Below, piece by piece: positions 5,828-46,583 of a stretch of DNA of 64,000 bases. The notes beneath the pieces are model-generated. The model was not told the origin of the DNA, ran no database searches, and worked only from the letters and a program-made list of their open reading frames with translations. Source of the DNA: Candidatus Omnitrophota bacterium (GTDB lineage Bacteria; Omnitrophota; Gorgyraeia; Zapsychrales; JBAZNR01); NCBI GenBank assembly GCA_041649175.1, contig JBAZNR010000003.1:143449-207448 (forward strand), given 5' to 3'. Numbering within the stretch: position 1 is the stretch's first letter; each line of letters starts with the position of its first letter. The translations under genes were made by a program, and so were the position numbers.

Positions 5828-7264
5828 ATGAAGAAATTATTATTAGCCGTGTTAGTGGTCGCTTTAGTGGCCATGCCGGCATTTGCCAGCGTGCAAAACG
5901 TTAAGGTCAGTGGTTCCATTAACTCCACCTACCTTAATCGTGATCAGTTTGATTTCGGCAGTACTGCCGGTCAAGTTGGTTGGGAACAGTCACTTTTACT
6001 TACCCAATCAACGTTGCGTGTTGATGCCGATTTAACCGACAATGTTTCAACGACCGTTAAATTGCTCAACGAAAGAGTTTGGGGCGAATCGGATGTTTCT
6101 TCTCCCGATGATGCCAACGACATCGATATCAATTTAGCCTATGCCACCATGAGAGAAATGCTTTATTCTCCCTTGACTGTTGTTATCGGTCGCCAGGAGC
6201 TCTTTTATGGTAATGGCTTAGTTATCGGTAACGGTACTAACAACGTTACAGGCCAAGGTGGTCTTAATGGCGTTGCTGAAGATCTCGCCATGAATACCGC
6301 ATTCGATGCCGTTAAGTTGATCCTTAACTATGATCCTCTGACCATCGATGTTGTTGCTTCCAAAGTTGATAGCAATGTTTCATTAGGTGCCGGTGAGATT
6401 AAAGATGATGTTAATCTTTTCGGTACCAATGCCAATTATAAACTTGGCGACAGCAAGAATACCGAAGTGGAAGCGTATTTTTGGACCAGAGTTGATAATT
6501 CAACTGCAGCAGCTGCTGCTGGTTCTAAGGCTGATACCGTTTACAACCCAGGTCTTCGCGCCAGCACCAATCCTATCAAGGGATTGAATGTTCAGGGCGA
6601 AGTTGCTTGGCAAAGAGGTAATAAAGCTGAAACAGTTGCTGGTGGTGTTCGTGATAATCAACAAAGAGAGGCTATGGCCGCTCAAGTTATCGCTAGCTAC
6701 GCCGTTAGCCATGATTCAGTGGCAAAATGGAACCCGGTTCTTAGCTCATGGTTTACCTATCTATCAGGCGATAACGATGGCATGACAGCGAGTCTCAACC
6801 CATCAACAAAAGAAACATATACCGCATGGGATCCTATGTTCGAAGGTCAAGCGGGTGGTACAATTTACAACACCTTATTTGACTATTCAAACGTTCGTCT
6901 CGTGGGTGGGTCTTTGCAGGTCAATCCTATGCAAGACGTAACCCTCAAGGGTACGGTTACCGGCCTCTGGTTAGATAAAGATCTCGATCAGATAAGTACG
7001 GGAGATGGCAATGGATCTGCGGCAAGCGTATTACGTCAACCGGACGGAACGTTCTCAACATTGAACGTTACCAGCAATCGTCATCTCGGTAATGAGTTTG
7101 ATGTTGCCTTGATGTATGATTACACCGAAGATGTCCAACTTGGTTTAAATGCCGGCTGGTTTTTCCCTGGTGCTGTGTTTGTAAACGCGTACGGCCACAA
7201 TGGTCTTGATGACAATCATCAAATGGCTTCACAGTTGATTGCCAACGTGAATGTAAACTTCTAA
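5828..7264 (+). CDS. Secreted beta-rich protein, probable outer-membrane beta-barrel/porin
   Basis: Signal peptide (MKKLLLAVLVVALVAMPAFA). G/N/T/S-rich amphipathic composition. C-terminal VNVNF ends in Phe as in outer-membrane beta-barrels. Strong RBS AAGGAGGA and a ~340-nt leader. Confidence 0.65.
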   Translation: MKKLLLAVLVVALVAMPAFASVQNVKVSGSINSTYLNRDQFDFGSTAGQVGWEQSLLLTQSTLRVDADLTDNVSTTVKLLNERVWGESDVSSPDDANDIDINLAYATMREMLYSPLTVVIGRQELFYGNGLVIGNGTNNVTGQGGLNGVAEDLAMNTAFDAVKLILNYDPLTIDVVASKVDSNVSLGAGEIKDDVNLFGTNANYKLGDSKNTEVEAYFWTRVDNSTAAAAAGSKADTVYNPGLRASTNPIKGLNVQGEVAWQRGNKAETVAGGVRDNQQREAMAAQVIASYAVSHDSVAKWNPVLSSWFTYLSGDNDGMTASLNPSTKETYTAWDPMFEGQAGGTIYNTLFDYSNVRLVGGSLQVNPMQDVTLKGTVTGLWLDKDLDQISTGDGNGSAASVLRQPDGTFSTLNVTSNRHLGNEFDVALMYDYTEDVQLGLNAGWFFPGAVFVNAYGHNGLDDNHQMASQLIANVNVNF

Positions 7265-7288
7265 TTGATTTAAAATTAGGAGTTGTTT

Positions 7289-7328
7289 TAAAGGCGCCCC
7301 GATATTTTGTCGGGGCGCCTTTGTTTTT
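7289..7328 (+). terminator. Rho-independent terminator after the porin gene
   Basis: aaaggcgccccga-tatttt-gtcggggcgccttt followed by GTTTTT. GC-rich 13-bp stem plus a U-tract. Confidence 0.85.
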
Positions 7329-7372
7329 GGCTGCCTTTTATCCGCATCTGCCATCTTGTTTAAAAGGCAGCC
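7329..7372 (+). other. Second stable hairpin (12-bp stem ggctgcctttta/taaaaggcagcc)
   Basis: Read directly in the sequence, immediately 3' of the terminator. Confidence 0.5.
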
Positions 7373-7485
7373 AACCCCGATGAGTGCAGCGAAATTATTG
7401 AAAAGAATTTCGCTGTAGCTGACGAATCGGGGTATCTTGGCCTTGTTTCCTGTTCCCACAATGTTTTTAATCACCCCCGTTATTT

Positions 7486-7522
7486 CATTGCGCAAAATTA
7501 TTAAAAATAATTTTGCGCAATG
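7486..7522 (+). promoter_or_regulatory. Perfect 17-bp inverted repeat with 3-nt spacer (cattgcgcaaaattatt-aaa-aataattttgcgcaatg)
   Basis: Checked by hand as an exact reverse complement. Lies in a 560-bp intergenic region upstream of the 7828 gene. Could be an operator or an RNA hairpin. Confidence 0.45.
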
Positions 7523-7827
7523 AAACAGAGCACGGGGGTTATTCATTTTCCTCTAATAAAAGCGAGGTAAAAATTGCCCCATCATTTTATTCCTCGAAAT
7601 TATTTTCAACAATTTCTCGGAACAAAATAAAACATGGGGCTTACTCGCTTTTTCCCAATAAAAATCCTGGTAAAGCTCGTAAAATAATCACAAATAATAT
7701 TTGCATTTAGTATTTTTCTGCTATGATAAAAATTAAGAGAAAAATACTACATCTTGTGGTATTTGAACAGATTAAGGCTTAAGTAAAACTATTCGTATTT
7801 TTAAAGAAATAAGGATTTCCGACGCAG

Positions 7828-8403
7828 ATGACCAAAGATGAGATTTATGAGCATTTAGCTCAAGTGTATCTCGGCAAGCAAAAGAAAATTGACAAGAAAA
7901 GAAAGCGCTCGTTAAAGCCGAAGGTATTAATTCAGGGAATTGTTTTAGTTATTCTTTTGGGCTCATCCTTTTACGGTCTTACCGCATTCTTTTCCAAAAA
8001 AAATACTTACACACCGACGAGCATCATCTTCGCGCTTAACAATAGCCCCATCCGCGTTAAGTATAATTTTAATCAGCCGTATCCGCAGCGAGAAGACTTT
8101 GCGCTTCCTATTCCAAAGATTGACGCCACCAAGTATAAAAAAATAAACTTTTCTATTCGCGGTACCGATGATGGTTTTCCGGGGATCGTTAAAGTCGTTT
8201 TGCGCAACCGCAAAAATGAAAATTCTTTTTATTTTGTCCAGAATGTCGGCCTCAAATGGCAGAAGCTTAGTATTCCCTTGGAAGAATTTAGCGCTATTAC
8301 GGACTGGACAAATTTACGCGATATCTCCTTTGTTTTAGAATCTTGGAATGTTGAGCGTAAACGAGGGGCCGTACTGATCGATGAGATTTGTTTTACGAAT
8401 TAA
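7828..8403 (+). CDS. Hypothetical membrane-anchored protein with a C-terminal beta-sandwich (CBM-like) region
   Basis: Basic N-terminus, a single TM helix (VLIQGIVLVILLGSSFYGLTAFF), then a beta-rich domain ending LIDEICF as in some carbohydrate-binding modules. Family not firmly recognised. Confidence 0.55.
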   Translation: MTKDEIYEHLAQVYLGKQKKIDKKRKRSLKPKVLIQGIVLVILLGSSFYGLTAFFSKKNTYTPTSIIFALNNSPIRVKYNFNQPYPQREDFALPIPKIDATKYKKINFSIRGTDDGFPGIVKVVLRNRKNENSFYFVQNVGLKWQKLSIPLEEFSAITDWTNLRDISFVLESWNVERKRGAVLIDEICFTN

Positions 8404-8423
8404 CGGTCTGACCCTAAGACCGT
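8403..8423 (+). terminator. Short hairpin (acggtct-gacccta-agaccgt) after the 7828 gene
   Basis: 7-bp stem with a weak T-tract. May attenuate rather than terminate. Confidence 0.35.
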
Positions 8424-8473
8424 TTATAAGATAAATTAAAAGCGAAAGACTTACTAAAAGGAGGATCAAGAAT

Positions 8474-9634
8474 ATGCGCGTCATATCCATAGCGAACCAA
8501 AAAGGTGGTTGCGGGAAGACGACAACGTCCATTAATCTGGCGGCGGCTTTAGCTGCTCAAGGAAAGAAGGTTCTCCTTTTAGATCTAGATCCTCAGTCGC
8601 ACGCGTCATTGGGATTAAATGTTGAGTCGCAAAATAGCATTTACAATGTCATCTCGCGCTTAACGCCGCATAAATTGGGCATTCAAGACATTATTATCAG
8701 TTTGCCTGACAGCTTTGATATTCTGCCGTCCAATGTTTTAGTCGGGACCCTGGAACAAGAATTGGCGGATGAGATCGGCCGTGAATTAAAGTTGGTGGAA
8801 GCCCTTTCACGCTTAGAAGGGCAGTATGACTATGTTCTTATTGATTGCCCTCCCAGCCTTGGGTTTTTAACGGTCAATGCTATTCGTGCCAGCCAAGAGA
8901 TCATTATTCCGGTTGAAACAAGCCGGTTTTCAATGCAAGGCGTTGAGCGGCTCATGGACATCGTCCATCTTATCAAAGATAGGCTAAATCACACGGTTGT
9001 TGCTAAAGTTTTAGTGACCATGTTCGATTCGCGTTTACGGCATTCGTTTCTCATGCTCGCTAAGATCAAAGAACGGTTTAACGCGATGATCTTTGATACG
9101 ATCATTCACGTGAACGTTAAGCTGAAGGAATCCATTGTTATGGGCCAAACCGTGGCAAGTTATGACAAATATTGCCGCGGGGCTAAAGATTATTCAAGCT
9201 TGGCCAGAGAGCTTTTGCGCGCCAACAATGAGGAGGAAGTGATCGCCTCCTCCATTGCTCGACGGGTAGCTATTGAAACAGATGCGCCCATGCAAAACTC
9301 GTCACGGATACAGCAGTTTATGGAAGAAAGCGCGGCAGAAAGCGCAACAGAAGCTGCTATAGAAAATATTTCAGCACCCGAAGCGGTCTTCTCGCTGGAT
9401 GCGCCGTTTGCCCGCTCAGTTTATGTTGTAGGCAGTTTTAATGAGTGGGGTATTGATGAATCGTTTCGCATGCAAAAAGAAAACGACAAGTGGATCTTAA
9501 AGGCCTCATTGAAACCGGGCCGTTATCGCTATCGTTTTATCGTCGATGGGAAATGGCAGGAAGATCCCGAAAATCCGCAAAACGAAAAAAATCCTTTTGG
9601 TGAGATCGACTCTTTAGTTGAGGTTGGACAATGA
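8474..9634 (+). CDS. ParA/Soj/MinD-family P-loop ATPase fused to a C-terminal CBM48/AMPK-beta glycogen-binding domain
   Basis: Deviant Walker A NQKGGCGKTTTSINLAAALA, then LLLDLDPQ and DYVLIDCPPSLG (ParA signatures). The C-terminal ~85 aa (SVYVVGSFNEWGIDESFRMQKENDKWILKASLKPGRYRYRFIVDGKWQEDPENP) matches the CBM48/AMPK1_CBM glycogen-binding pattern. RBS AAAGGAGGA. Confidence 0.85.
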   Translation: MRVISIANQKGGCGKTTTSINLAAALAAQGKKVLLLDLDPQSHASLGLNVESQNSIYNVISRLTPHKLGIQDIIISLPDSFDILPSNVLVGTLEQELADEIGRELKLVEALSRLEGQYDYVLIDCPPSLGFLTVNAIRASQEIIIPVETSRFSMQGVERLMDIVHLIKDRLNHTVVAKVLVTMFDSRLRHSFLMLAKIKERFNAMIFDTIIHVNVKLKESIVMGQTVASYDKYCRGAKDYSSLARELLRANNEEEVIASSIARRVAIETDAPMQNSSRIQQFMEESAAESATEAAIENISAPEAVFSLDAPFARSVYVVGSFNEWGIDESFRMQKENDKWILKASLKPGRYRYRFIVDGKWQEDPENPQNEKNPFGEIDSLVEVGQ

Positions 9635-9954
9635 CAGAAAATGCTCCGATCAACGAAAAAGAGATCTTAGATGGAAAAATATACGCCGTTTTATCCTATA
9701 TCTCGATTTTGTGCATTAGCCCGATCATATTTAAAAGAGAAAATGCATTTGCGTTATCACACGGAAAACAAGGCTTGATCATATTCGTCGGACAAGTTGC
9801 GGTTCTTATCTTGAGTATTGTTTTTCCCTGGGTTCTCCGTCCCGCGATGTTTTTGCTCTTCTCCTTGGCATTCTGGGGCATTATTGAGGCTTTGCGAGGG
9901 CATTATGTAAGATTGCCGCTCGTATCGGATATTGCGGATAAAATCACATTATAG
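9631..9954 (+). CDS. DUF4870-family small membrane protein
   Basis: GKIYAVLSYISILCISPIIFKRENAFALSHGKQGLII followed by two TM helices, as in DUF4870. ATGA-coupled to the ParA-CBM48 gene. Confidence 0.65.
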   Translation: MTENAPINEKEILDGKIYAVLSYISILCISPIIFKRENAFALSHGKQGLIIFVGQVAVLILSIVFPWVLRPAMFLLFSLAFWGIIEALRGHYVRLPLVSDIADKITL

Positions 9955-9991
9955 CCAGAAATTCTTGGCGTAATGTCTTTCAGAATATCTT

Positions 9992-10546
9992 ATGGCGCTA
10001 TTTCGTCGGATCCTGGAGTCACTCAAGAAAAAATTCCGTCTTTTACCCTCACGACGACGTTTAAAGCGCCGCTCTCCCGCCAAAAAAACAAAAAAACGAT
10101 CGGCTCGCCCCCCAAAGAGTTCTTTAAAACGGGTTTTAAAATCATCCAAGTCTAAAAAACGCATACGAAGACCTGTCGGGCCCAAAAAGGTAAAAACTTT
10201 TAAGGCCAAGGTTCGTTTTACTAAAAAGAAGCCTTCGAAGAAGCTTTTAAAAGGTCGTTCATTGAAGCCCAAAGAAAAGAGCTTAGCGCAAACTGAGGGC
10301 TTTTATGTAGGCGAAATAACGCATTTCTTCTCCAAAATAAAAGTTTGTGTTGTGAGGATCGATAACGGCTCAATTATCGTCGGAGATAAGTTGCGCATTG
10401 AGGGCGGTTCCGGCCATTTTATTCAAAAAGTAATTTCGCTTCAAATTGAGAATAAAGATGTTAAAATAGCAAACAAAGGCCAGTTGGTCGGCCTAAAGGT
10501 TAATAAGAAAACACGTCCCGGAAGCAAGGCCTATAAGATCTCTTAA
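9992..10546 (+). CDS. Protein with an extremely K/R-rich ~95-aa N-terminal tail and a C-terminal beta-barrel domain (translation-factor domain-II-like)
   Basis: The N-terminus is about 45% Lys/Arg (SRRRLKRRSPAKKTKKRSARPPK and similar). The C-terminal segment GEITHFFSKIKVCVVRIDNGSIIVGDKLRIEGG...VISLQIENKDVKIANKGQLVGLKV resembles an EF-Tu domain-2-type barrel. Confidence 0.5.
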   Translation: MALFRRILESLKKKFRLLPSRRRLKRRSPAKKTKKRSARPPKSSLKRVLKSSKSKKRIRRPVGPKKVKTFKAKVRFTKKKPSKKLLKGRSLKPKEKSLAQTEGFYVGEITHFFSKIKVCVVRIDNGSIIVGDKLRIEGGSGHFIQKVISLQIENKDVKIANKGQLVGLKVNKKTRPGSKAYKIS

Positions 10547-10556
10547 GAGGTGCCGT

Positions 10557-10736
10557 ATGAAAGACAAAGCTGGACAAAATACGTTTGAATATATTCTGCT
10601 ATTGGCGGCAGTTGTCGCTGTTTTTATTGTTTTTCTAAATCCTAGCGGGATATTTAGGGGGAAAGTGGAAAGAATTCTCAATACGATCCCCGATCAAGTT
10701 AATTCAATGGCGCGCAATATCCATTTTGAAGAATAA
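10557..10736 (+). CDS. Unannotated 59-aa ORF: Flp/Fap-type pilin-like protein (class III signal peptide)
   Basis: MKDKAGQNTFEYILLLAAVVAVFIVFL fits the Flp prepilin motif: G, then Q/A-x-x-x-E-Y, then a hydrophobic helix. RBS AGAGG 6 nt upstream. One codon below the 60-aa ORF-track cutoff. Confidence 0.5.
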   Translation: MKDKAGQNTFEYILLLAAVVAVFIVFLNPSGIFRGKVERILNTIPDQVNSMARNIHFEE

Positions 10737-10745
10737 TACATTTCT

Positions 10746-11156
10746 ATGGCTCTTTTAGATAAAAATGATAAGAAGCTGGTCAAACGCTATTTAGTATGGT
10801 GTTATAAAACGACTAAAGAAGAGCTTGACCGGGTTGATAGGAAGTTTACTCAGCTCAAAGTAGATGATTTTATTTTGCGTCAGCTGACGGATAAATCAGC
10901 GCAGTCGCAATACAAGAAGCTTCTTAATGATTTTCGTTTGTATATTGCCAAAAAACATGGGGAAGCGCAGGCTGATAAGTTTTCTGGCAATGGGAGTAAG
11001 GCTGTTCGATGCGAATATTTATTTCTAAAAAATCGTTTTGCGGCTATTGAAAAAGCGATCGCATTTTTCTTAGGGAAAAAAGAACTGAAAGTCATCGCCG
11101 CGCTTTACGAACAAGAAATGACGGCGCGTATTTTGCAGTCACGGGAACACACATAA
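10746..11156 (+). CDS. Hypothetical protein
   Basis: Clean 136-aa ORF in the operon context. No recognisable family. Confidence 0.45.
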   Translation: MALLDKNDKKLVKRYLVWCYKTTKEELDRVDRKFTQLKVDDFILRQLTDKSAQSQYKKLLNDFRLYIAKKHGEAQADKFSGNGSKAVRCEYLFLKNRFAAIEKAIAFFLGKKELKVIAALYEQEMTARILQSREHT

Positions 11157-11168
11157 TTCTTTTTAAAT

Positions 11169-12065
11169 ATGTCTAACTCTGAAATCATAAATCGCAAAGA
11201 CCCCTTAACCGGATTTCACACCAAAGACGGGCTTTTCGAATATCTTAACTCTAAGATCGTCTCTGTTTATGAAAAAGCCGGACGCCTGTCTGTTATTATT
11301 CTCGACATAGATAAATTTAAACACATCAATGATACCTATGGCCATCCCGTCGGAGATGATGCCTTGCGACATTTTTCCGCGATCATTAATAAAGCCTTAA
11401 GAGGCCAGCATTTTGTGGCGCGTTATGGCGGCGATGAGTTTGTTATTGTGATGCCGGACAATGCAGAGTGCAAAGAGAGCTTGGAAATTGCCGCGCGTAT
11501 TAAGTCGATGCTCAGCAAAGAGCAGTTTTATACAATCCGTGATCACATCAGGATGAACTCTTCCATTGGCATTGCGACTTATCCGACTGACGCGAAAACA
11601 GCCAAAGACTTGCTTTCTATGGCGGATGAGGCGCTCTATTATGCCAAGCGGCATGGCCGCAATAAGGTCATCATGTCAAAAAGCCTTCGCTCGCGCTCTA
11701 CTAAGGACACTATTTTCAAATTTATCGGATTTCTTGTTCTTGTCTTTTTTGGGGCTGTTGTCTTTTTCTCGTATGCCGGAACGGATTCTCTTAAGGGAGT
11801 TGCGGCCTATTGCCAGGATATTAAAAACTATACGGCCTATTTTACTTATGTAAAAACAAAGAACCGCAATTATTGTTTACTGGAATTAACCGATGGGAAA
11901 AAGATAGAAGGCTGGATCATTGAAGAAAGCGGGGGGTCTCTCGTTATTAGCTTAACGAAACCGGAACTCAACCTTAATCCGATGCGGAAAAATTTTACAG
12001 CGTTGATACAGACGATTAGAATCCCGAAATCAAATATCGTCTCATCAGTAAGAACAATGAAATAA
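11169..12065 (+). CDS. Diguanylate cyclase (GGDEF domain) with a C-terminal TM segment and a small extra domain
   Basis: Active-site RYGGDEF. GGDEF core motifs DPLTGFHTKDG and DIDKFKHINDTYGHPVGD. Hydrophobic helix FIGFLVLVFFGAVVFF after the catalytic domain. Confidence 0.85.
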   Translation: MSNSEIINRKDPLTGFHTKDGLFEYLNSKIVSVYEKAGRLSVIILDIDKFKHINDTYGHPVGDDALRHFSAIINKALRGQHFVARYGGDEFVIVMPDNAECKESLEIAARIKSMLSKEQFYTIRDHIRMNSSIGIATYPTDAKTAKDLLSMADEALYYAKRHGRNKVIMSKSLRSRSTKDTIFKFIGFLVLVFFGAVVFFSYAGTDSLKGVAAYCQDIKNYTAYFTYVKTKNRNYCLLELTDGKKIEGWIIEESGGSLVISLTKPELNLNPMRKNFTALIQTIRIPKSNIVSSVRTMK

Positions 12066-12070
12066 TAAAA

Positions 12071-12349
12071 TTAGAATTTTGTGGTACGCGGCTGATCGTT
12101 GAAGGTATTGTGATAGCGTTGAATTTGGTGCTGGGAGTCTTCGGTAAATTTTCTTTGGGCAATTTCGCTATTTTGGATGATCGCATCTTCTGCTTTTTGC
12201 AGTTGCTCAAATTCAAGCGCCGGGTCGTTACTGGTCGTGGCGGAGGTTGATTGAAAGGCCTTGTGAATACTTCCTAAATACGAAGAAAACATGCCAATGC
12301 CCCAGCCAAGGATCAAAATGAACATAAAGGGCAAGTAGAACTTTTTCAT
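12071..12349 (-). CDS. Small hypothetical membrane or secreted protein
   Basis: Minus-strand ORF with the start placed at MKKFYLPFMFILILGWGIGMF (signal/TM-like). Convergent with the GGDEF gene. No strong RBS. Confidence 0.3.
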   Translation of the reverse strand: MKKFYLPFMFILILGWGIGMFSSYLGSIHKAFQSTSATTSNDPALEFEQLQKAEDAIIQNSEIAQRKFTEDSQHQIQRYHNTFNDQPRTTKF

Positions 12350-12437
12350 AGGGTTATTATAGGAAGAGAACTTGAAATAATAAAGGAAATTATTTTTTAC
12401 TTCAAAGGTTTTAAAAAAGAAATTATTTCTACTCTGC

Positions 12438-14153
12438 ATGATTCTTCAACAAAAACCACGGCTAATTGATGTCCTTCTCCTAGGATTCTTTACTATTCTC
12501 ATTACATTCCAGCCTTTTTATCTTCACGATGATATTATCATGATGGAATCAGGGATACATCTTCCGGTTATCAACGCTGTTTTTCATGGTTTGGTTCCTT
12601 ATCGGGATGTTTTCTTTTTGAGAGGTCCTTTAGAGCTGTATGTGCCGGCGCTAGGAATGCTGTTGTTTGGAAAAAACGCAGCAATTTTACCTACATTTTA
12701 TTATCTTGGGACAATTGCAACACTTTTGCTTTGGGTTTTTATGGCAGCGCAGATCTTCCGAACAAGACTTATTTTGTATCTGGCAATTCCTGTCCTTATT
12801 GCCAGGACATTCCCTCGAGTATCATTCAACTATTGGGGCGGAATGCGGTATGCCATGAGCCTTTTGCCGCTCTTACTCTTTATTATTTTCCTAAAGCGAA
12901 GAAGATTTCGATGGGTGTTTTTCAGCGGCGTTATTTCCGCTGCGGCTCTCCTGACAACCATTGAAGCTGGTTTTTGTGCCACTGTATCCGTCAGCTTCGC
13001 TTTTGTTTTTGCTCTAGTTTTTAAAATAGAAGATCGGCGTTTTCTTCTGAAAGGGATGGCAATTTATGGATTTGGCGTTTTGTGCCTGCTGTTTCCATCT
13101 GCAATTTATTTGATATGGACAAACTCGCTTGTTCCTTTCTTTGACTCAACCCATGCTGTCATCAGGAATCTCTACATTGCTTTTCCTGATGCTCCTGGTA
13201 ATCATCCTGAAAGCTTTGTGGAATTCTTGTCAGCGTTGTGGCCTGGCAGTCGATTCTTCAAGTTTATGACGCCGATTTATTGCTATCTTGTTTTTCTTGT
13301 GTTTTTTGTCTATGTGTTGCGTTTCAAAAAAATAAGCCAGGAACGAATCATTGCTCTTTTTAGCTTGATGGTTTATGGAAGTATCTTGTATATTTCTGCG
13401 TTTCGTAAAATTGAAGGACACCATTTTGAAATGGCGTTGCAGCCAGAAAAACTTTTGTTGTTTTTCATGCTAGAGGAAGTATTTCTATTCTTTAAGGAGA
13501 GAATTTCTTTGATTAAAGCGGCCAGTGCGCAACAAGGGCAGAAATCCAGATCTTGGAAAATCGTAGCAATGTATTGTTTTATTGCGTGTCTTATTCTGTC
13601 ATCGGTGATTTATTCAATCGAACGTTACAATAAGCGATTTGTCATGTCCAAGGTATTCGGCAGGCTGCTTGCGGGTAAGCCCATCTCTGACCTTTCTCCG
13701 CTAGCTGGAAGATCAAAGATGCTGGCGATTGATCGAGCCAAGGGGATGGTTGTCCCCAAGGAGCAAGCGGATGAAATAACAACCGTAGTTGATTTTATAT
13801 CCAGAAATACCAAATCAACAGATGTTGTTTTTACGCCTCCGGAGCTTGGTACATATAATTTTCTTTTTGATCGCCCTTTTGTTGGGCGCTTTGCGGTTGT
13901 AACGGCATCTTGGCTAAAAGAAGATTGGTGGCAAGAACTTATTAACGATTTTAAGGAAGTCAATCCGGAATATGCTGTGATGACCAATGTTGATGATGTA
14001 AGTTTCCCCTCGGAATGGTATTTTCGTAATCCGCGTAATATTGAGCGATATGAAGAACTGACCCAGCTGGTTTTGGGTCGTTATGATGTCGTAAAATCGT
14101 TGCCGTCCGTTTCGATTTATCGCCTAAAGCATTCGTATCGGTTGGCTGAATAA
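12438..14153 (+). CDS. Polytopic integral membrane protein, paralog A, with a C-terminal soluble domain
   Basis: About 9-11 predicted TM helices, then a ~200-aa hydrophilic domain. Shares long conserved blocks with the next gene (LPVINAVFHGLVPYRDVFFLRGPLELYVPA, FEMALQPEK, GMVVPKEQA, ELGTYNFLFDRPF). Confidence 0.65.
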   Translation: MILQQKPRLIDVLLLGFFTILITFQPFYLHDDIIMMESGIHLPVINAVFHGLVPYRDVFFLRGPLELYVPALGMLLFGKNAAILPTFYYLGTIATLLLWVFMAAQIFRTRLILYLAIPVLIARTFPRVSFNYWGGMRYAMSLLPLLLFIIFLKRRRFRWVFFSGVISAAALLTTIEAGFCATVSVSFAFVFALVFKIEDRRFLLKGMAIYGFGVLCLLFPSAIYLIWTNSLVPFFDSTHAVIRNLYIAFPDAPGNHPESFVEFLSALWPGSRFFKFMTPIYCYLVFLVFFVYVLRFKKISQERIIALFSLMVYGSILYISAFRKIEGHHFEMALQPEKLLLFFMLEEVFLFFKERISLIKAASAQQGQKSRSWKIVAMYCFIACLILSSVIYSIERYNKRFVMSKVFGRLLAGKPISDLSPLAGRSKMLAIDRAKGMVVPKEQADEITTVVDFISRNTKSTDVVFTPPELGTYNFLFDRPFVGRFAVVTASWLKEDWWQELINDFKEVNPEYAVMTNVDDVSFPSEWYFRNPRNIERYEELTQLVLGRYDVVKSLPSVSIYRLKHSYRLAE

Positions 14154-14162
14154 AGGAGTAAT

Positions 14163-15827
14163 GTGAACACCGAAAAAAGACTAGGATTTCTTGACGTTCT
14201 TTTGCTTTCTTTATTTATTGTGGTCATTACGTATTATCCGTATTATTTGCACGGAAAAATTAATATTTTTGAAATTGGACTATATTTGCCGGGAATTAAT
14301 GCCGTTTTGCACGGGCTGGTCCCTTATAGGGATTTCTTTCAATTGCGGGGTCCTTTGGAATTGTATGTTCCGGCGGCAATGATGTCCGTTCTTGGCGTGA
14401 ATATACCTGTCTTGTCAGTTTACTTTTATGTGGGAACGGTCTTAACTCTTATTATTGCCGTTTTGATCGCCAAAGAAATCTTTAAGACAAGATGTGTTCT
14501 TTATTTATTTGCCGCGGTTTTAGTCGCGCGGACGTTTCCCAGGGTGGTTTTTACCTATTGGGGAGGAATGCGTTATGCGCTTGGTTTATTAGCGGTTTTT
14601 TGTGTTGTGAAATTTTTCAAGCGAGAAAAACCGATTTGGATGTTTTTTGCAGGCATCGCGTCTATTTGCGGATTGTTGACGAGTGTTGAGATCGGCGTAT
14701 ATTCTGTTGCGGGAGTTCTTGCGGCGATCTCGGTTTCTTATGCCTTTCGCCTTCAAGACAAAAATATTATTTGGCGCGCCGGTTTATTTTATATTGCCGG
14801 CGCAGCGGTCATCATTGTGCCGTATGTTCTATATCTTGTCTTTACTAATTCTTTCATTCCTTTTGTGGATACGATTTATGCGGTTGTGATCAGGAAAGAA
14901 ACCATCATTAACCAGCATGCAATCTCTAATATTCCCAGTAATCTTTTTGAAGCATTAGCGGCCATGACCAATCCGTCAGCAAAGAATTTCCGGCATATGA
15001 CGCCGGCCTATCTTTATCTTTTGCTTGCCGGGTATTTGATCGTTGAAATGCGAAATAAAAAGCTTTCGCGAGAATCAGCGATGCTCGTTTGTATCGGGAT
15101 TTATGGTTTTGTTATGTACAATACGGCCTTTCGCGGTATTTGGGCGCAACAGTTTGAAATGGCGCTGCAGCCGGAAAAGATATTGTTTTTCTTTCTTTTA
15201 GAGCGGGCATATTTTTACTTGAAGGACAAGGAAATTAGAATTTCTAGAATTCAGGTAAGCGTAGCATTTCTAACTCTGATTGTTTTTTCATCCCTCGGTT
15301 ATTCGATCGCGAGATATAATCATCGTTTTTTTGCGTTTCAGTATGTTAGAAATCTTATTTCGGGAAAAGACACAAAATCGTTGGTTCCTTTGAAAGATGT
15401 TGCACTGCGGCCCATCCAGATTGAAAGGGCCAGGGGAATGGTTGTTCCGGTCGAGCAGGCACATGAGATGGAGTCGATCGTTAATTTTATCGACGAGAAA
15501 TCGAGCCGAGAAGATATCGTTTTTACGTATCCGGAATTGGGGACGTATAATTTTCTTTTTGACCGCCCGTTTTTAGGCAGGTTTCCTATCGCAACGTTTT
15601 CTTGGTTTAATGAGCGTTGGCATCGGGAACTGATCTCTGACCTTGAAACTATCAAGCCACGCTGGGTTATCTTTGGAAAAAAATACGATCCAAATTGGCA
15701 GGCTGTTTATTTAGGGCAAGAAGAAAACGTTAAGAAATATAATGACGTTGTGCGTATTATAGAAAATGATTATGTTTTAGTTAAGGAGATGCCTGAATCC
15801 GGCACCTATATTTATAAACATAAATAA
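14163..15827 (+). CDS. Polytopic integral membrane protein, paralog B (tandem duplicate of 12438..14153)
   Basis: Same architecture and the same conserved blocks (LPGINAVLHGLVPYRDFFQLRGPLELYVPA, FEMALQPEK, GMVVPVEQA, ELGTYNFLFDRPF). Confidence 0.65.
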   Translation: MNTEKRLGFLDVLLLSLFIVVITYYPYYLHGKINIFEIGLYLPGINAVLHGLVPYRDFFQLRGPLELYVPAAMMSVLGVNIPVLSVYFYVGTVLTLIIAVLIAKEIFKTRCVLYLFAAVLVARTFPRVVFTYWGGMRYALGLLAVFCVVKFFKREKPIWMFFAGIASICGLLTSVEIGVYSVAGVLAAISVSYAFRLQDKNIIWRAGLFYIAGAAVIIVPYVLYLVFTNSFIPFVDTIYAVVIRKETIINQHAISNIPSNLFEALAAMTNPSAKNFRHMTPAYLYLLLAGYLIVEMRNKKLSRESAMLVCIGIYGFVMYNTAFRGIWAQQFEMALQPEKILFFFLLERAYFYLKDKEIRISRIQVSVAFLTLIVFSSLGYSIARYNHRFFAFQYVRNLISGKDTKSLVPLKDVALRPIQIERARGMVVPVEQAHEMESIVNFIDEKSSREDIVFTYPELGTYNFLFDRPFLGRFPIATFSWFNERWHRELISDLETIKPRWVIFGKKYDPNWQAVYLGQEENVKKYNDVVRIIENDYVLVKEMPESGTYIYKHK

Positions 15828-16659: not shown

Positions 16660-19182
16660 ATGACATCCAAAAAGACACATCTTTGTATTCACGGACATTT
16701 CTATCAACCTCCCAGAGAAAATCCTTGGATCGAGGAAATTGAAGCTCAAGAAAATGTCGGCGGAATTTATCACGACTGGAATGAGCGTATTTCTTCTGAA
16801 TGCTACCATCCTAATGCGTTCGCGCGTGTTTTAGACGGTGAACAGCAAATCGAAAATATCGTTAATAATTATGAGTCTTTGAGCTTTAACTTTGGCCCAA
16901 CGCTTTTAAGCTGGATGGAAAAGTATGATCCGCGGACTTACGAGCGCATTATCGAAGCAGACCGTAAAAGCATCAAAGAACGCGGCGGCCATGGCAATGC
17001 CTTAGCGCAGGTTTACAATCATATTATTATGCCGCTGGCGAATCGGCGGGATAAAATAACGCAAGTGAAATGGGGTATTGCTGATTTTAAGAAACGTTTT
17101 GGTCGGACCCCCGAATCAATGTGGCTTGCGGAAACAGCTTGCAACGAAGAATCTTTGCAGGTCTTGATCGAAGAGGGAATGAAATTTCTTATTTTGGCGC
17201 CGCATCAAGCCGAGAAAATTAAGCGTTTTTCGGATGCCCATTGGAGCGATGTTTCCGGTGGTAACGTAGACCCAACGCATCCTTATCGATGTTTTTTAAA
17301 TGATAGTTCCGGTCGTTATATTGACATCTTTTTTTATGATGGCCCTGTTTCAAAATCAGTTGCCTTTGATGATCTCGTGAATGATGCCAGGATCTTTGCG
17401 CATCGCTTGGAAAATGCCCGGCGTCCGGACCGGCGCCATACCGAGCTCATCCACGTTGCCACCGACGGAGAAACATACGGGCATCATAAGATCTTCGGAG
17501 ATCGTGCCTTGGCGTATTTGTTGAAGACGGAAGCCGCAAAACACGGATTTGTGATCACCAATTACGGTGAGTTCTTGGAAAAGTTTCCACCGGAATATGA
17601 GGTTAAAATTAAATCCGGCGAAAATGGCCTAGGAACTTCCTGGAGCTGTGCGCATGGCGTGAAGCGCTGGAGTGATCATTGCGGTTGCCGGGGAGACGGC
17701 CCGGGGCATTGGCGGCAGGATTGGCGCAGGCCCTTACGCGAAACGTTCGATTGGCTTCGAGACGAGCTCGCTCTTATTTTCACGAAAGAGGGAAATAAGT
17801 ATTTTCACGATGCCTGGGAAGCGCGCAATGATTATATTAACGTGGTTTTGGACCGCAGCCATAAATCCAGGGAAGATTTCTTTCGTAAGCACGCGAAATA
17901 TATTTTATCCAAAGATGATGTGGTGATTTGCTACAAGCTTTTGGAAATGCAGCGCAGCGCAATGCTGATGTATACAAGCTGCGGATGGTTCTTTACGGAA
18001 GTTTCTGGGGAAGAAACGGTACAGGTGATCAAATATGCCGCGCGCGCTGTTCAGCTCGCCGAAAGTGTTATCAAGGCAGACTTAACGACAGAATTCAGCA
18101 GCCGTTTAAGAAAAATCAAAAGCAACATGGAATATTTTGGCGACGGAGAAGGCGTTTATGAGCATTTGGTTAAGCCTTCCATTGCTACCCTAGAGCGGGT
18201 GGTCAGCCATTTTGCGATCAGTTCCTTATTCAAGAATTACAATGATCAATTTACGATCTATGGTTATGAGTTTGAGAATTTGGATTATCGCAAGGAGAAC
18301 TTGGGGGATTTGACACTGTGCTTGGGGCGGGTTAAAGTTCGTTCCATTGTAACGTTTGAAGAAATCGATGTTGTTTATGTTCTTTTGCAATCTGAAATTT
18401 ATGATTTTTATTGTTACGTGCGGCCTTTTTCGGAAATTTCCGATTATTTAAAATTCGGCCATGAACTTTTTGGAGAATTTCTTTTAGGGCATCGTAATTC
18501 CATGGGAAAGATCATTTATGAGCGTTTTGGCACGGAATATTTTTCTCTGAAGGATCTCTTTAAAGAGGAGCGCAAGGAAATTCTGGCCTTGCTGTCTCGG
18601 GATGCCATTGAGCGGTTTAAACATTTGGCGGATGAACTTTTGCAAAAGCACCGCCGCATGATCGATGTCTATCGGATGACCAAAATCCCATTACCGGATG
18701 AATGCCGTTTTGTCGTCGAGCAAAAGCTTTCCGGGGATTTTAATGACCTGATTAATAAATCGATCCTATCTGATTCTGAGGTCTTTGATCGAGCGCATGC
18801 GATACGCGTTTTAGCTAAAGAATTGGGGTTAAAACTTAATCGTAGCCACGCAGAACAGTTTTTAACAAAGCAGCTTAACGAAACGATCGCTGGTTTGCGC
18901 ATTAAGTGGAATGATGGGAAGATCAAAGATTGTTTAAGTATGGTTAAAGTGGCTCAGCGCTTAGGCATTGAGGTTGATTTCCGTATGTCTCAAGAACATT
19001 ATTTAGCGATCGCGGAAAGGCTAGAGCATGATAAAACCTATGCGGCGACTGCCGGTGGCCAGAGTATTTTTGATTTTATTGATCTCGGCCGAAGGCTAGG
19101 GATCAACGTGGAAGCCATTAAATTAAACAGGGAAAGTCCTTTATTTAAGGCTGCGTTTTTTCCAAGCCAACCTGGCAATTAA
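16660..19182 (+). CDS. Glycoside hydrolase family 57 protein (alpha-glucan-active; amylase/branching/4-alpha-glucanotransferase type)
   Basis: N-terminal LCIHGHFYQPPRENPW and the GH57 catalytic region (WLAETACNEESL, HVATDGETYGHH). 840 aa with a long helical C-terminal extension. Confidence 0.8.
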   Translation: MTSKKTHLCIHGHFYQPPRENPWIEEIEAQENVGGIYHDWNERISSECYHPNAFARVLDGEQQIENIVNNYESLSFNFGPTLLSWMEKYDPRTYERIIEADRKSIKERGGHGNALAQVYNHIIMPLANRRDKITQVKWGIADFKKRFGRTPESMWLAETACNEESLQVLIEEGMKFLILAPHQAEKIKRFSDAHWSDVSGGNVDPTHPYRCFLNDSSGRYIDIFFYDGPVSKSVAFDDLVNDARIFAHRLENARRPDRRHTELIHVATDGETYGHHKIFGDRALAYLLKTEAAKHGFVITNYGEFLEKFPPEYEVKIKSGENGLGTSWSCAHGVKRWSDHCGCRGDGPGHWRQDWRRPLRETFDWLRDELALIFTKEGNKYFHDAWEARNDYINVVLDRSHKSREDFFRKHAKYILSKDDVVICYKLLEMQRSAMLMYTSCGWFFTEVSGEETVQVIKYAARAVQLAESVIKADLTTEFSSRLRKIKSNMEYFGDGEGVYEHLVKPSIATLERVVSHFAISSLFKNYNDQFTIYGYEFENLDYRKENLGDLTLCLGRVKVRSIVTFEEIDVVYVLLQSEIYDFYCYVRPFSEISDYLKFGHELFGEFLLGHRNSMGKIIYERFGTEYFSLKDLFKEERKEILALLSRDAIERFKHLADELLQKHRRMIDVYRMTKIPLPDECRFVVEQKLSGDFNDLINKSILSDSEVFDRAHAIRVLAKELGLKLNRSHAEQFLTKQLNETIAGLRIKWNDGKIKDCLSMVKVAQRLGIEVDFRMSQEHYLAIAERLEHDKTYAATAGGQSIFDFIDLGRRLGINVEAIKLNRESPLFKAAFFPSQPGN

Positions 19183-43404: not shown

Positions 43405-44019
43405 ATGAAAACACAAAAAAATGATTATTTTTGTCACCCAACATCCTGCGTTGAAGAGGGCGCTACAATAGGGCAAGGGACAAAGATCTGGTTTTATTCG
43501 CATATTTTAAAAGGGGCGAAGATCGGGCAGCGCTGTCATTTGGGGCAAAACGTGGTGGTGCATCCGACGGCTGTGATCGGAAATGGCGTCAAGATCCAAA
43601 ATAATGTTTCCGTGTACGATGCGGTAACACTGGAAGATGATGTCTTCTGCGGGCCGTCTTGCGTTTTTACAAATGTAATAAATCCCCGGTCTGCTATCTC
43701 GAGGAATTCCGCTGAATTCTTCAAGAAAACTTTAGTGAAAAAGGGGGCGACCATTGGCGCGAACGCGACCATTTTGTGCGGCATTACTATTGGCCGTTTT
43801 GCTTTTGTCGGAGCGGGGGCGGTGGTGACGAAAAGCGTTCCTGATTTTGGGCTTTTTTTCGGTAATCCGGCACGTTTAATGGGGTGGATGTGCGCTTGCG
43901 GCACAAAAATAAAGTTCTTGGCCGCGAAGGGAACTTGTGTAAGCTGTAAGGCCGTTTATAAAAAATCAGGGAAAGTGGTTGTTGCCGCTTTAAAGAAAAG
44001 TAAAATTCAAAATCAATGA
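43405..44019 (+). CDS. Left-handed beta-helix (hexapeptide-repeat) sugar N/O-acetyltransferase
   Basis: Repeating [LIV]G-x4 hexapeptides (GATIGQGTKIWF, IGNGVKIQNNVSV, GATIGANATI, FVGAGAVV). Confidence 0.8.
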   Translation: MKTQKNDYFCHPTSCVEEGATIGQGTKIWFYSHILKGAKIGQRCHLGQNVVVHPTAVIGNGVKIQNNVSVYDAVTLEDDVFCGPSCVFTNVINPRSAISRNSAEFFKKTLVKKGATIGANATILCGITIGRFAFVGAGAVVTKSVPDFGLFFGNPARLMGWMCACGTKIKFLAAKGTCVSCKAVYKKSGKVVVAALKKSKIQNQ

Positions 44020-46559
44020 AGATCCTGTCTTTAATATCGAAGACTTTTAGCCTTGAGAAAAAACCGGTTAAGTTTTTAGCGCTGGGAATTGCTCTTCTGA
44101 TCGTTCTTGTTTTCGCGTATACCGGATTCTTAAAGGCATCAACACAAATTGATTATGCGCTTTTTAGCATTGATCAAACCTTTTCCTGGCGCAGCACGCC
44201 CGAAGGGATCTTGCGCACGGATGCGTTGGCGGATTACGACACCCTTCTTTTGTCCAAAGATTCTTGGAATGATTTTGATCTGTCGTTTTTGTTAATAAAT
44301 CCGAAAGATTGCGGCGTGCTTTACAATTTTAAAGATGATAAAAACTTTCATTTTGTATATTTTAACAAAGCCCAGCAAAAGATATTTATCGGCCTTAATA
44401 CCCAACAAAAGCCCTACCTTATTAAATCCTTTCCTTTTGATATTTCCTTAGTGCTACGCGTTAATTTAAAGGTGGATCAAAATACGGTCCATATCGCGAT
44501 CAACGATAAGCCGTTATTCCAATTTAATATTCCGCAAGCGGAAGGAAAATTAGCTCTTGTTTTAAATGATGCCAAGCTTCCTAAAACCGCTTTTAGCCAG
44601 ATCTCAATGAGCGGTCACACGCGTGACGGCAGGCACATTGTCCGTCGAGCAAGCCCGGAATATCTCTCAGGATCTCATCTTATTTCTTCATTCTTTCTTT
44701 TAGCGGCGATGCTGGCGTTCAGTGGTTATCTAGCCAAGGTCTTTGAATATTTGTCAAAGAATGCTCTAGCGCATCCAACTCAGAAAAACTCTTTTGGGAT
44801 CCTTTGGGCGGTTTTTATCCATTTGCTAACTGCGACTTTTGTTTTTTGGCCGTTTCTTTTAAAGGGAAGTGTTTTGGTGTCTAGCGCCGACAATTTTGGA
44901 GAAATCTTTCCGCTATTCTTCTTATCAAAACATAACTTTATCGATATCTTAAGCGGGCAATCTTTGTCTTTGTGGAACCCATATACGCACAATGGAATGC
45001 CGTTTTTTTCCAGCCATTGGAATATGATCTATTATCCGCTGAATTGGGTCATTTTCCTATTTGACGATAAGAATGTTTTAACCGCGTTAACGGCGCGGAC
45101 ATTTTTAGAAGTTTTCTTGATCGGAATTTTTGCTTATCAATTCTTTCGCCGCGAACTAAGATCTCAGGGTTGGGCGCTTTTTTCTTCAGTGGTATACCAA
45201 TTATGTTCTTTGTTGATCTTTACATTGACGGTTTTTCCGGCCATATCGCTGTATTTTGCCATGACTTTGTATCTTTATTTGATCTGGTCACTCAGTGAAA
45301 GGACAAAGATATGGAATTATCTTTGGGTAACCGTGTCTCTTATTTTGATCTTCACATCGGCCAACATGGCGTTTATTTTTTATGCCGGCATTTCGCTGGC
45401 GATCTTTACAGTGTATCGGCTGATAAGCCAGGAAGTAGGACAAAAAGCCAGGAATGAGAACTTTGTTTTAATTTTTGCCAGCGTGATCACGGCTATTTTA
45501 ATTTCTGCGATTCGCCTGATCCCGTGCGCGCTGGGCATTTTAGCCAGCAATCGAATTGTGGATAATTTTTACACTCTCCACGATCGTTCGGCAATGCTGG
45601 TGAGACTTTTTGTTCCGGAAATTGCCGGATGGTTCGGGTCTCATTCTTTTAATGCCCTGACATCAAGGAATTTAAATCTGATCTTTGAACGCAGCGACTT
45701 ACCGTCTAATTCTCAAAATATGTTTTTTGTTTATTTTGGGATCGTGGCGGCGCTATTGCTTGTGTGCAATTTATTTATAAAGGCCAAAAATCAGCATGGG
45801 TTTTGGAAACTTTATTCATTTTTGGCGGTCGCGGCAGCACTTTTATTCCAGCCGATCTGGGGGATTTTAAGCATTTTGCTTTTTCCTCTTAATCATTACA
45901 GCTATCACTTGATCATTCTTCCGGTGGGAATTTGCATGTTGGCGGGGTATACCGGACTTTATTTGGAACAAGGCAAATTTGATATCTTTAAAAATCTAAA
46001 TCGGCTTACCGCTATCTTGCTTTTGTTGCAGGCTTTGCTCATCGTGATCCTTACGTATCTTTTTCCGTCGTTGACCGTGCTCTCTCGGATTATTTTCTTA
46101 AGTATGATCGGTTGGTATGTGATCTTACGTTTTCATGTTTCTAAAAATCAGCATGACCGTAATGCATTTCTAGTCAAAACTACTTTAGCGATGACTGTCT
46201 TTGCTTGGATAGCGATGTTCCTAACCGCAACGGCAATCTTTATCCGGCCCATTGATGAAAAAGAAGGCGCGGCAGCGTTTATTTTCATTCCGGCCTTGAT
46301 CATTTTTGCGGTTATTGCGGCCGCATTTACGATCTATATGAATTTTATAAGGCGTAAGACCGTTTTTAACTTAACGAAAATGATCATTTGCTTCCTGGCA
46401 GGATTCATGATTATTTTTGCGATATTCCTGCGGCCTTTTCTTTTGAGCTTATTTAATTTGGATGCGCCGGTTTTAACTTATGGGCTTGATATCTTTTTGG
46501 GCCATTTACGGTTTTGGTTGATCGCCTTGATCTTTTTCTCGGCGGTGGTCTCTTTTTAA
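44016..46559 (+). CDS. YfhO-like GT-C membrane protein, N-terminal 847-aa part, ended by an in-frame TAA
   Basis: More than 20 hydrophobic helices. The same reading frame continues after a single TAA into 46584..47480. Confidence 0.55.
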   Translation: MKILSLISKTFSLEKKPVKFLALGIALLIVLVFAYTGFLKASTQIDYALFSIDQTFSWRSTPEGILRTDALADYDTLLLSKDSWNDFDLSFLLINPKDCGVLYNFKDDKNFHFVYFNKAQQKIFIGLNTQQKPYLIKSFPFDISLVLRVNLKVDQNTVHIAINDKPLFQFNIPQAEGKLALVLNDAKLPKTAFSQISMSGHTRDGRHIVRRASPEYLSGSHLISSFFLLAAMLAFSGYLAKVFEYLSKNALAHPTQKNSFGILWAVFIHLLTATFVFWPFLLKGSVLVSSADNFGEIFPLFFLSKHNFIDILSGQSLSLWNPYTHNGMPFFSSHWNMIYYPLNWVIFLFDDKNVLTALTARTFLEVFLIGIFAYQFFRRELRSQGWALFSSVVYQLCSLLIFTLTVFPAISLYFAMTLYLYLIWSLSERTKIWNYLWVTVSLILIFTSANMAFIFYAGISLAIFTVYRLISQEVGQKARNENFVLIFASVITAILISAIRLIPCALGILASNRIVDNFYTLHDRSAMLVRLFVPEIAGWFGSHSFNALTSRNLNLIFERSDLPSNSQNMFFVYFGIVAALLLVCNLFIKAKNQHGFWKLYSFLAVAAALLFQPIWGILSILLFPLNHYSYHLIILPVGICMLAGYTGLYLEQGKFDIFKNLNRLTAILLLLQALLIVILTYLFPSLTVLSRIIFLSMIGWYVILRFHVSKNQHDRNAFLVKTTLAMTVFAWIAMFLTATAIFIRPIDEKEGAAAFIFIPALIIFAVIAAAFTIYMNFIRRKTVFNLTKMIICFLAGFMIIFAIFLRPFLLSLFNLDAPVLTYGLDIFLGHLRFWLIALIFFSAVVSF

Positions 46560-46583
46560 ATTAGCTGGGTTTCGGCACGGCTT

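Follow-up and report, generated by a model that had tools for sequence, protein, structure and literature searches.

The locus

This study concerns a run of seven plus-strand genes, g1 to g7, found in a 64-kb window (the whole stretch of DNA analysed here) of a 659-kb contig belonging to a Candidatus Omnitrophota genome assembled from a metagenome. The second gene of the run encodes a ParA-type ATPase fused to a carbohydrate-binding module (CBM) of family 48, hereafter ParA-CBM48. The four genes g1 to g4 form a module which is widespread in Omnitrophota, and its g1-ParA pair occurs in other phyla as well; we suggest below that this module may serve to position or to tether glycogen. All seven open reading frames (ORFs) announced in a preliminary description of this DNA are present where that description had placed them, and the same genes appear in the public gene calls made on the source contig. 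They are listed here with their lengths in amino acids (aa) and, where a transmembrane (TM) segment is concerned, with this mention:

7828-8403, plus strand: g1, 191 aa, TM-anchored protein with a CBM11-like jelly roll
8474-9634, plus strand: g2, 386 aa, ParA/Soj-type ATPase with an AMPK-beta-type CBM48
9631-9954, plus strand: g3, 107 aa, small multi-TM protein, remote relative of DUF4870/Tic20-like proteins
9992-10546, plus strand: g4, 184 aa, isoelectric point 11.7, K/R-rich protein with a beta barrel of the translation-protein type
10557-10736, plus strand: g5, 59 aa, small protein resembling Flp pilins and class III signals
10746-11156, plus strand: g6, 136 aa, basic protein with no family match
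11169-12065, plus strand: g7, 298 aa, GGDEF diguanylate cyclase

A ParA-type ATPase fused to a CBM48

The fusion of a ParA ATPase and a CBM48 in g2, already recognised in the preliminary description, is borne out by profile searches. The protein is made of an ATPase domain (aa 1-250), a linker and a CBM48 (aa ~303-385, nucleotides (nt) ~9380-9628). The ATPase domain matches AAA_31 with an E-value (E) of 5e-56 and also CbiA (E 3.5e-22), while the C-terminal domain matches AMPK1_CBM (PF16561) with 55.3 bits for a cut-off of 26.8 and CBM_48 (PF02922) with 22.8 bits for a cut-off of 22.4. The deviant Walker A motif reads QKGGCGKT (aa 9-16), and K10, K15, D37, D39 and D124, that is, the signature and Walker A lysines, the Walker A' aspartates and the Walker B aspartate, are invariant in 73 full-length orthologues. 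Judged by these motifs, g2 is a deviant Walker A ATPase of the ParA/MinD family. A profile search of the PDB with 23 orthologues gave as its best match, at E 9e-59, the structure 8ray, which is the chromosomal ParA of Myxococcus xanthus (PMC12462528). Other Soj structures were matched too, and the CBM48 region was found by PDB profile search to match the AMPK beta CBM 1z0n at E 9e-12. Two of its tryptophans, W325 and W361, which we take to be the equivalents of the sugar-stacking tryptophans of AMPK beta, are invariant in 73 of 73 orthologues. With a profile score above threshold and conserved aromatic residues, the domain is, as far as its sequence tells, a CBM48 of the AMPK1_CBM subtype.

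Two basic residues of the ATPase domain deserve attention. R187, conserved in 72 of the 73 orthologues, is presumably the counterpart of the DNA-binding arginine R189 of Bacillus subtilis Soj. K216, a lysine in 45 of 48 close orthologues, is aligned with a residue of M. xanthus ParA, R238, whose replacement in the R238E variant abolishes non-specific DNA binding (PMC12462528).

The interdomain linker varies in length as well as in sequence. One can notice in it, before the CBM48, a short conserved motif of consensus S-E-R-M-Q-x-L-I (aa ~268-285, 9270-9330), which is possibly a regulatory or docking helix.

We considered and rejected a role of g2 as an ATPase of the BY-kinase/Wzc or of the BcsQ type: the scores are far under the cut-offs, there is no tyrosine cluster and there is no bcs context. 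Searched with the PADLOC defence models, g2 gave a match to the P-loop only (28 bits) and the other six proteins gave nothing.

Conservation of the neighbourhood and linkage to GH57

With each species represented by one genome, a scan yielded at least 583 genomes with a full-length relative of ParA-CBM48; 80 loci were fetched, and their ORFs were called and clustered. Most of these loci are from Omnitrophota, and relatives at 35-45% identity lie on contigs labelled Planctomycetia, Phycisphaerae, Desulfobacteraceae, Myxococcota and others. The gene directly upstream of ParA-CBM48 is a g1 homologue in 45 of the 47 close loci which could be evaluated, with a median gap of 21 nt. Directly downstream, g3 is found in 28 of 44 close loci with a median gap of -1 nt, and g4 is at most two genes away from ParA in 34 of 44. 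Among 24 distant loci, nine have a remote g1 homologue (240-300 aa, with the same layout) directly upstream of ParA-CBM48. These remote homologues are supported by reciprocal matches of hidden Markov models (HMMs; E 1e-5 to 5e-11), and the other neighbours of the nine pairs are unrelated housekeeping genes.

The three last genes of the run behave differently. Homologues of g5 are found in 5-7 of the 80 loci and homologues of g6 in 7-8, all of them in the closest clade, and no GGDEF gene adjoins the module in any of the 80. In the window, the run is closed by a gene of opposite orientation:

12071-12439, minus strand: small convergent TM/coiled-coil gene, publicly called as 84 aa at 12071-12325

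In relatives this gene comes after g4 (L002, L003, L006, L012), after g5 (L005) or after g6 (L004, L011, L016), and it is opposed to the module always, in at least eight loci. Its shifting position means that the 3' end is variable. What lies between the conserved core and the conserved boundary, g5 to g7, is thus a set of variable insertions. The unit of seven genes is lineage-specific, and we are highly confident that the conserved unit is g1-ParA-CBM48-g3-g4, with g5 to g7 as accessory genes. Thus, of the gene order first described, the part from g1 to g4 is kept together in relatives, but g5, g6 and g7 fail to follow. The same holds for the machine which had been imagined from this order: an ATPase motor, membrane anchors and a cationic protein do travel together, but the output through cyclic di-GMP (c-di-GMP) is no conserved part of the module, because the GGDEF gene never adjoins it in relatives.

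Upstream of the module, 23 of the 55 loci which could be evaluated have a gene of ~520 aa belonging to the GH57 family (PF03065, E 8e-63) directly before g1. It is separated from g1 by 43-72 nt and is probably in the same operon at those loci. The following lie upstream of g1, together with those of 18 more loci:

L020, 5774-7339: GH57 gene
L022, 5758-7329: GH57 gene
L032, 5811-7376: GH57 gene
L041, 5748-7343: GH57 gene
L046, 3472-5025: GH57 gene

Three distant loci (L052, L056, L069) also have a GH57 gene no more than 8 kb away. In the window, the slot of this gene is filled by a 563-bp spacer; the window nevertheless encodes a GH57-DUF3536 protein (16660-19182, 4.6 kb downstream) and a glycogen phosphorylase (53664-55691). 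GH57 is a family active on alpha-glucans, so the linkage to GH57, together with the CBM48, ties the module to glycogen. Our preferred reading, to which we give a probability of roughly 40%, is that the module would be a ParA-type system for the positioning or the tethering of glycogen, in which g1 would be the membrane-anchored partner.

It could be objected that the adjacency of these genes is nothing but an inherited gene order in a compact genome with most genes on one strand, and that it reflects no common function. Our own ORF map of the window has 56 of 66 ORFs on the plus strand, with a median gap of 12 nt between genes of the same strand, and 27 of the 49 gaps do not exceed 15 nt; a shared strand and short gaps carry no weight here, because both are the norm throughout the window. 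The flanking housekeeping genes are, moreover, syntenic in the close clade too. However, the g1-ParA pair persists in distant lineages where all the other neighbours have changed, overlaps between the stop of ParA and the start of g3 recur from locus to locus, and the linkage to GH57 reappears in the three distant loci mentioned above. We hold an explanation by inherited order alone to be very unlikely.

A different objection accepts the glycogen link but moves nothing: ParA-CBM48 would be a ParA of chromosome segregation or of the cell cycle, whose CBM48 senses glycogen as AMPK beta does and tunes segregation or division to the carbon reserves. The ATPase is indeed nearest to chromosomal ParA/Soj proteins, the CBM is of the AMPK-beta type and not of the type linked to enzymes (55 bits for AMPK1_CBM against 23 for CBM_48), and the window shows no further ParA or ParB. 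Yet in none of the loci does a ParB gene stand beside it, and the tight linkage to g1, g3, g4 and GH57 is left unexplained by such a sensor. The family is found, besides, on contigs labelled Myxococcota and Desulfobacteraceae; these groups have canonical ParAB, and therefore ParA-CBM48 would be there an extra ParA with a partner gene of its own. This makes a sensor of energy status quite unlikely in our opinion.

Six distant loci have, directly after ParA-CBM48, a gene whose product starts with KKLG(K/R)GLEDIS..F[LI]S, which we assume to be a ParA-binding motif of the ParB type. Four of the six encode degenerate MinD/ParA-like proteins of ~310 aa and two encode proteins of ~180 aa without a recognised fold:

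L056, 9128-10045: KKLG(K/R)GLEDIS gene
L066, 9099-9641: KKLG(K/R)GLEDIS gene
L067, 3339-4277: KKLG(K/R)GLEDIS gene
L069, 4476-5462: KKLG(K/R)GLEDIS gene
L070, 9091-9639: KKLG(K/R)GLEDIS gene
L078, 9126-10058: KKLG(K/R)GLEDIS gene

The other proteins of the conserved unit

The product of g1 had been described as a TM-anchored beta sandwich resembling a CBM, and both its AlphaFold2 (AF2) model and its Foldseek matches agree with this. In the model (pLDDT 83), the chain begins with a helix, continues through a disordered linker rich in K into a TM helix (31-58) and ends in a jelly roll of nine strands (67-190). The jelly roll is matched by CBM11, CBM8, CBM28/29/30 and CIA30 structures, with E down to 8e-7; a search for family matches of g1 gave none. 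In the alignment, the cytoplasmic N-terminal helix is nearly invariant and reads MT[KR]DEIYEHLAQVYLGK; its consensus is M-T-[KR]-D-E-I-Y-E-H-L-A-Q-V-Y-L-G-K, of which the final K17 is invariant, and its core LAxxY[FL] is kept in distant g1-like proteins. Short positively charged N-terminal peptides are the means by which partners of ParA/MinD proteins bind the ATPase dimer (PMC10241942, PMC12462528); for ParB, the binding pocket described is at the interface of the dimer (PMC12462528). The protein g1 is, by its sequence features, a candidate for the membrane-anchored partner of ParA.

The start of g3 overlaps the stop of g2 within an ATGA (9631-9634). Its likeness to DUF4870 stays below threshold and comes from its relatives: the copy in the window has no match, but five orthologues have PF09685 as their best match, over nearly the full length, with 14-23 bits for a cut-off of 25.

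As to g4, the combination of a K/R-rich region with a beta barrel was correctly seen from the start. Its first 100 aa contain 44 K/R residues against 2 D/E, and the alignment and the AF2 model delineate a conserved basic amphipathic helix at the N-terminus (aa 2-16), a K/R-rich disordered middle part and a conserved, confidently modelled barrel (aa 104-183). According to Foldseek, this barrel resembles the C-domain of U32 peptidases (4he6, TM-score 0.84-0.88), and also IF2 and EF-Tu D2; a sub-threshold match to GTP_EFTU_D2 agrees with these structural matches.

Accessory genes and probable transcription unit

The three accessory genes are of diverse kinds. The likeness of g5 to Flp pilins holds in so far as the motif G|QNTFEY is present, but the score for Flp1_like is of 21.3 bits for a cut-off of 33.5, and the matches to class III signals are sub-threshold as well. 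The protein encoded by g6 is basic and belongs to no family; a PDB search returned just a weak match to the coiled coil of the ClpB M-domain, and g6 is probably helical or coiled-coil. For g7, a GGDEF cyclase with a TM helix after its catalytic domain had been announced, and this is what we found (PF00990 with 140.8 bits, TIGR00254 with 159 bits). The GGDEF domain spans aa 11-166, with an intact RYGGDEF, and the RxxD I-site is absent five residues upstream of it. The layout of g7 is inverted: the catalytic domain comes first, with no N-terminal sensor, followed by a TM helix (~182-204) and by a C-terminal domain of ~95 aa predicted to lie outside the cytoplasm. A response-regulator-EAL phosphodiesterase is encoded at 57276-58445, after the glycan cluster described below and the glycogen phosphorylase.

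Of the ATGA overlaps and short gaps ascribed to several of these genes, we found a single overlap (g2-g3) and three gaps shorter than 15 nt (g4-g5 10 nt, g5-g6 9 nt, g6-g7 12 nt); the gaps g1-g2 and g3-g4 amount to 70 and 37 nt. The seven genes plausibly form, in this genome, one transcription unit starting from a sigma-70-like promoter at ~7700-7727, since a terminator and this promoter are found on the 5' side and the convergent gene on the 3' side, and since no convincing terminator was found within the seven-gene run.

Such a unit could be taken for a single machine of seven parts, in which an ATPase motor, membrane anchors, a cationic adaptor, a pilin-like subunit and the synthesis of c-di-GMP would be coupled. 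The gaps of 9-12 nt from g4 to g7, the lack of a convincing internal terminator and the intact GGDEF motif speak for it. Against it stand the distribution of the accessory genes (GGDEF adjacent in 0 of 80 loci, g5 or g6 in 5-8) and the conserved convergent gene, which follows g4, g5 or g6 in relatives; short gaps, for their part, are normal in this genome. We find the coupled seven-gene machine scarcely probable.

Beyond the convergent gene, two multi-TM proteins of 571 and 554 aa without Pfam match are encoded directly downstream (12438-15827), and their homologues come after the module in L014 and L016. Further on, a long cluster of glycan-synthesis genes on one strand (19592-53523) encodes glycosyltransferases, aminotransferases, radical SAM, YfhO and PMT-like proteins. 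Inside 44016-47480, the positions 46557, 46560 and 46563 are the only three bases at which the window and the public ENA contig differ. They are first positions of codons (C>T, C>A, C>A), CAA CTT CGC becoming TAA ATT AGC, and the in-frame TAA cuts a 1154-aa gene of the YfhO family into ORFs of 847 aa and 298 aa. Two other stretches of the contig which we compared are identical to the window.

The spacer upstream of g1

The 563-bp spacer separates g1 from a porin gene, which heads the following list; the other features are those of the spacer:

5828-7264: upstream porin gene, Alginate_exp family (Pfam)
7289-7323, plus strand: intrinsic terminator of the porin gene, a 16-bp stem (9 GC pairs) and a T run after it, taken as the 5' boundary of the unit
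7327-7374: second hairpin of the spacer
7375-7642: hairpin array of three tandem units of ~102-103 bp, with hairpins at 7375-7436, 7470-7543 and 7574-7642
7700-7727, plus strand: sigma-70-like promoter with an extended -10, TTTGCA-16-TGcTATGAT, from a consensus scan

The hairpins of the array are A/T-cored, and a perfect 20+20 palindrome lies inside the array at 7483-7525; two further palindromes are at 7387-7415 and 7585-7630. A degenerate fourth copy of the core of the array (7678-7701) overlaps the -35 of the promoter. When folded as RNA, the spacer reaches a z of -9.65 relative to shuffled sequences. A search of Rfam with the whole window and with the spacer returned only a tRNA above threshold, the matches of the spacer being far under the gathering scores; further copies of the hairpin unit were found neither in the rest of the window nor in the 80 loci, and blastx revealed no remnant of a GH57 gene in the spacer. 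In those relatives which have the porin directly before g1, the spacer measures just 160-332 nt. The hairpin array is lineage-specific.

The promoter lies in a block (7695-7729) which is conserved upstream of g1 in six loci (L004, L005, L007, L008, L013 and L016). The predicted start of transcription is likely at ~7735, which would give g1 a 5' untranslated region of ~90 nt. A structured leader of 560 bp had been proposed here. The spacer is highly structured indeed, but it is probably not a transcribed leader, because the conserved promoter-like element comes after most of the structure. The array may consist of operator-like (perhaps phased) palindromes, or it may be an inserted repeat. We rejected as a gene a 105-aa ORF of the minus strand (7229-7546), which overlies the hairpin array, is called in no public annotation and has no homologue.

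Another reading is that of an envelope function. ParA-CBM48 could position or regulate a membrane complex made of g1 and g3 for the uptake or handling, together with the porin, of extracellular or periplasmic alpha-glucans, the CBM48 sensing or holding imported chains and not storage granules. It would agree with this that the jelly roll of g1 looks like genuine carbohydrate-binding modules and is placed by the positive-inside rule outside the cytoplasm, that an outer-membrane channel of the Alginate_exp type is upstream in 38 loci, that g3 is a membrane protein and that the window is rich in glycan-synthesis genes. But a strong terminator and a promoter part the porin from g1, the porin is missing beside the distant g1-ParA pairs and the conserved set of genes has no transporter. 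The linked GH57 proteins, furthermore, begin at their catalytic region and have no signal peptide, and are therefore cytoplasmic. An envelope system of this kind seems unlikely to us.

Proposed mechanism

ParA/MinD ATPases are a general means by which bacteria place chromosomes, plasmids, carboxysomes, chemoreceptor arrays, flagella and the divisome. The cargo of such a system is usually named by its gene neighbourhood (PMC10241942, PMC12462528). Starting from the genes observed at the locus, the identities of their domains, their intact motifs, the conserved neighbourhood and the linkage to GH57, we infer DNA binding, glycogen binding, the roles of the partners and the nature of the cargo in the following way. 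The ParA domain would be a functional ATPase of the Soj type, whose ATP-bound dimer would bind the nucleoid. The CBM48 being fused to the ATPase, the latter carries its own cargo-binding domain: two flexibly tethered C-terminal CBM48s would hold particles of glycogen (alpha-glucan). At the inner membrane, g1 would show its near-invariant N-terminal peptide, recruit the ParA dimer and stimulate the hydrolysis of ATP and the release; g4 may act as a partner too, through its basic N-terminal helix. Cycles of ATP binding and hydrolysis would thereby distribute glycogen, or tether it, relative to the nucleoid and to the membrane.

Several facts weigh against this positioning or tethering of glycogen. 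In the distant group of g2 proteins, the position of K216 is occupied by A, K, R or S, which means that nucleoid binding may not be universal. A canonical ParB motif is absent from g1 and g4. The jelly roll of g1 is predicted to be periplasmic by the positive-inside rule, and glycogen is cytoplasmic; the proposed mechanism does not account for this domain, which could point to a function in the envelope. Finally, the close clade is also syntenic for the porin, a TPR protein and a phosphoribosyltransferase, so that part of the conservation may be due to inherited gene order and not to selection for linkage.

Taken in its full extent, the proposal is bolder: this would be the first system of the ParA/MinD family with a storage polysaccharide as cargo, having its own glycogen-binding domain, a membrane partner (g1) and a polycationic partner (g4), distributing granules actively in the ultra-small cells of Omnitrophota and having variants in several other phyla. 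We regard this wider claim as less likely than not. Literature searches combining ParA with CBM48 or glycogen, Omnitrophota with glycogen and Omnitrophota with ParA returned no paper on ParA-CBM48 or on glycogen as a cargo of ParA, and PMC10241942 makes no mention of a storage polysaccharide as cargo of a ParA/MinD system. If true, the claim would add a new class of cargo and a new architecture, in which the function of the adaptor is fused to the motor. The CBM48, the 17-residue peptide of g1 and the N-terminal helix of g4 would then be reagents to probe the organisation of glycogen in bacteria. The public names of the protein, merely "AAA family ATPase" or "chromosome partitioning protein", are misleading for these genes.

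Comparison with known systems

The gene order had been said to match none of the Tad, Min, Par and Mcd systems, and we came to the same result, as the gene sets of ParABS, Min, Mcd and Tad are not matched here. For Tad/Flp, there is no CpaF, TadB/C or secretin in the window. For Min, no match to MinC or MinE was found among the neighbours; g2 scores 58 bits with minD_bact for a cut-off of 212.9, and its C-terminus is a CBM48.

BcsQ is comparable in that it is a protein of the ParA/MinD family tied to a polysaccharide machine and to membrane partners, often with c-di-GMP genes nearby. The module differs from it by the score of g2 (TIGR03371, 69.9 bits for a cut-off of 157.85), by the absence of bcs genes nearby and by the polymer implied, which would be here an alpha-glucan.

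With the CBM of AMPK beta and with plant PTST, where a CBM48 directs proteins to glycogen or starch, g2 shares the same CBM subtype, the two tryptophans which we take to be sugar-stacking, and the principle of a targeting module borne by a protein that is not a glycosidase. The module is, in contrast, bacterial. Its CBM is joined to a P-loop positioning ATPase, where those proteins have a kinase scaffold or a coiled coil.

PhaF and PhaM tether the polyhydroxyalkanoate (PHA) storage granules to the nucleoid for their distribution to daughter cells, and are not known to be ATPases. The concept of a linkage between granule and nucleoid would be the same, and their histone-like K-rich tail resembles the basic region of g4; no homology is known, however, and in our system it is an ATP-driven ParA which would do the tethering.

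It is McdAB or ParABS that the module would most resemble in its working. The closest relatives of the ATPase are those of ParABS (8ray, 6iub, 1wcv), with conserved Walker motifs and, among the basic surface residues, a conserved R187 and a K216 that varies in the distant group, and six distant loci have a downstream gene with an N-terminal LG(R/K)GL motif, which we take to be of the ParB type. The score of g2 for the NCBIfam model ParA_partition is of 117 bits for a cut-off of 180. Unlike ParABS, the Omnitrophota module has neither a ParB-domain protein nor a ParB-type motif, its ATPase has an additional C-terminal CBM48 and it is not an origin-proximal parAB; no ParB-type domain was found in the six neighbours or in the conserved neighbour clusters, parS not being part of this search.

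As to McdAB, no carboxysome genes are present across the window, and the McdA structures 6non/6noo are distant matches of g2 (E ~1e-13, against 9e-59 for ParA). We know of no homology of g1 or g4 to McdB, no comparison having been made. The two systems would nevertheless be alike in their principle: a ParA-type ATPase would distribute a cytoplasmic body which is not DNA, the gene neighbourhood points to the cargo, and the gene beside the ATPase encodes a small partner with a high charge and partial disorder. They would differ in that the domain for the cargo, the CBM48, is carried here by the ATPase and not by the partner, and in that one of the candidate partners is a membrane protein.

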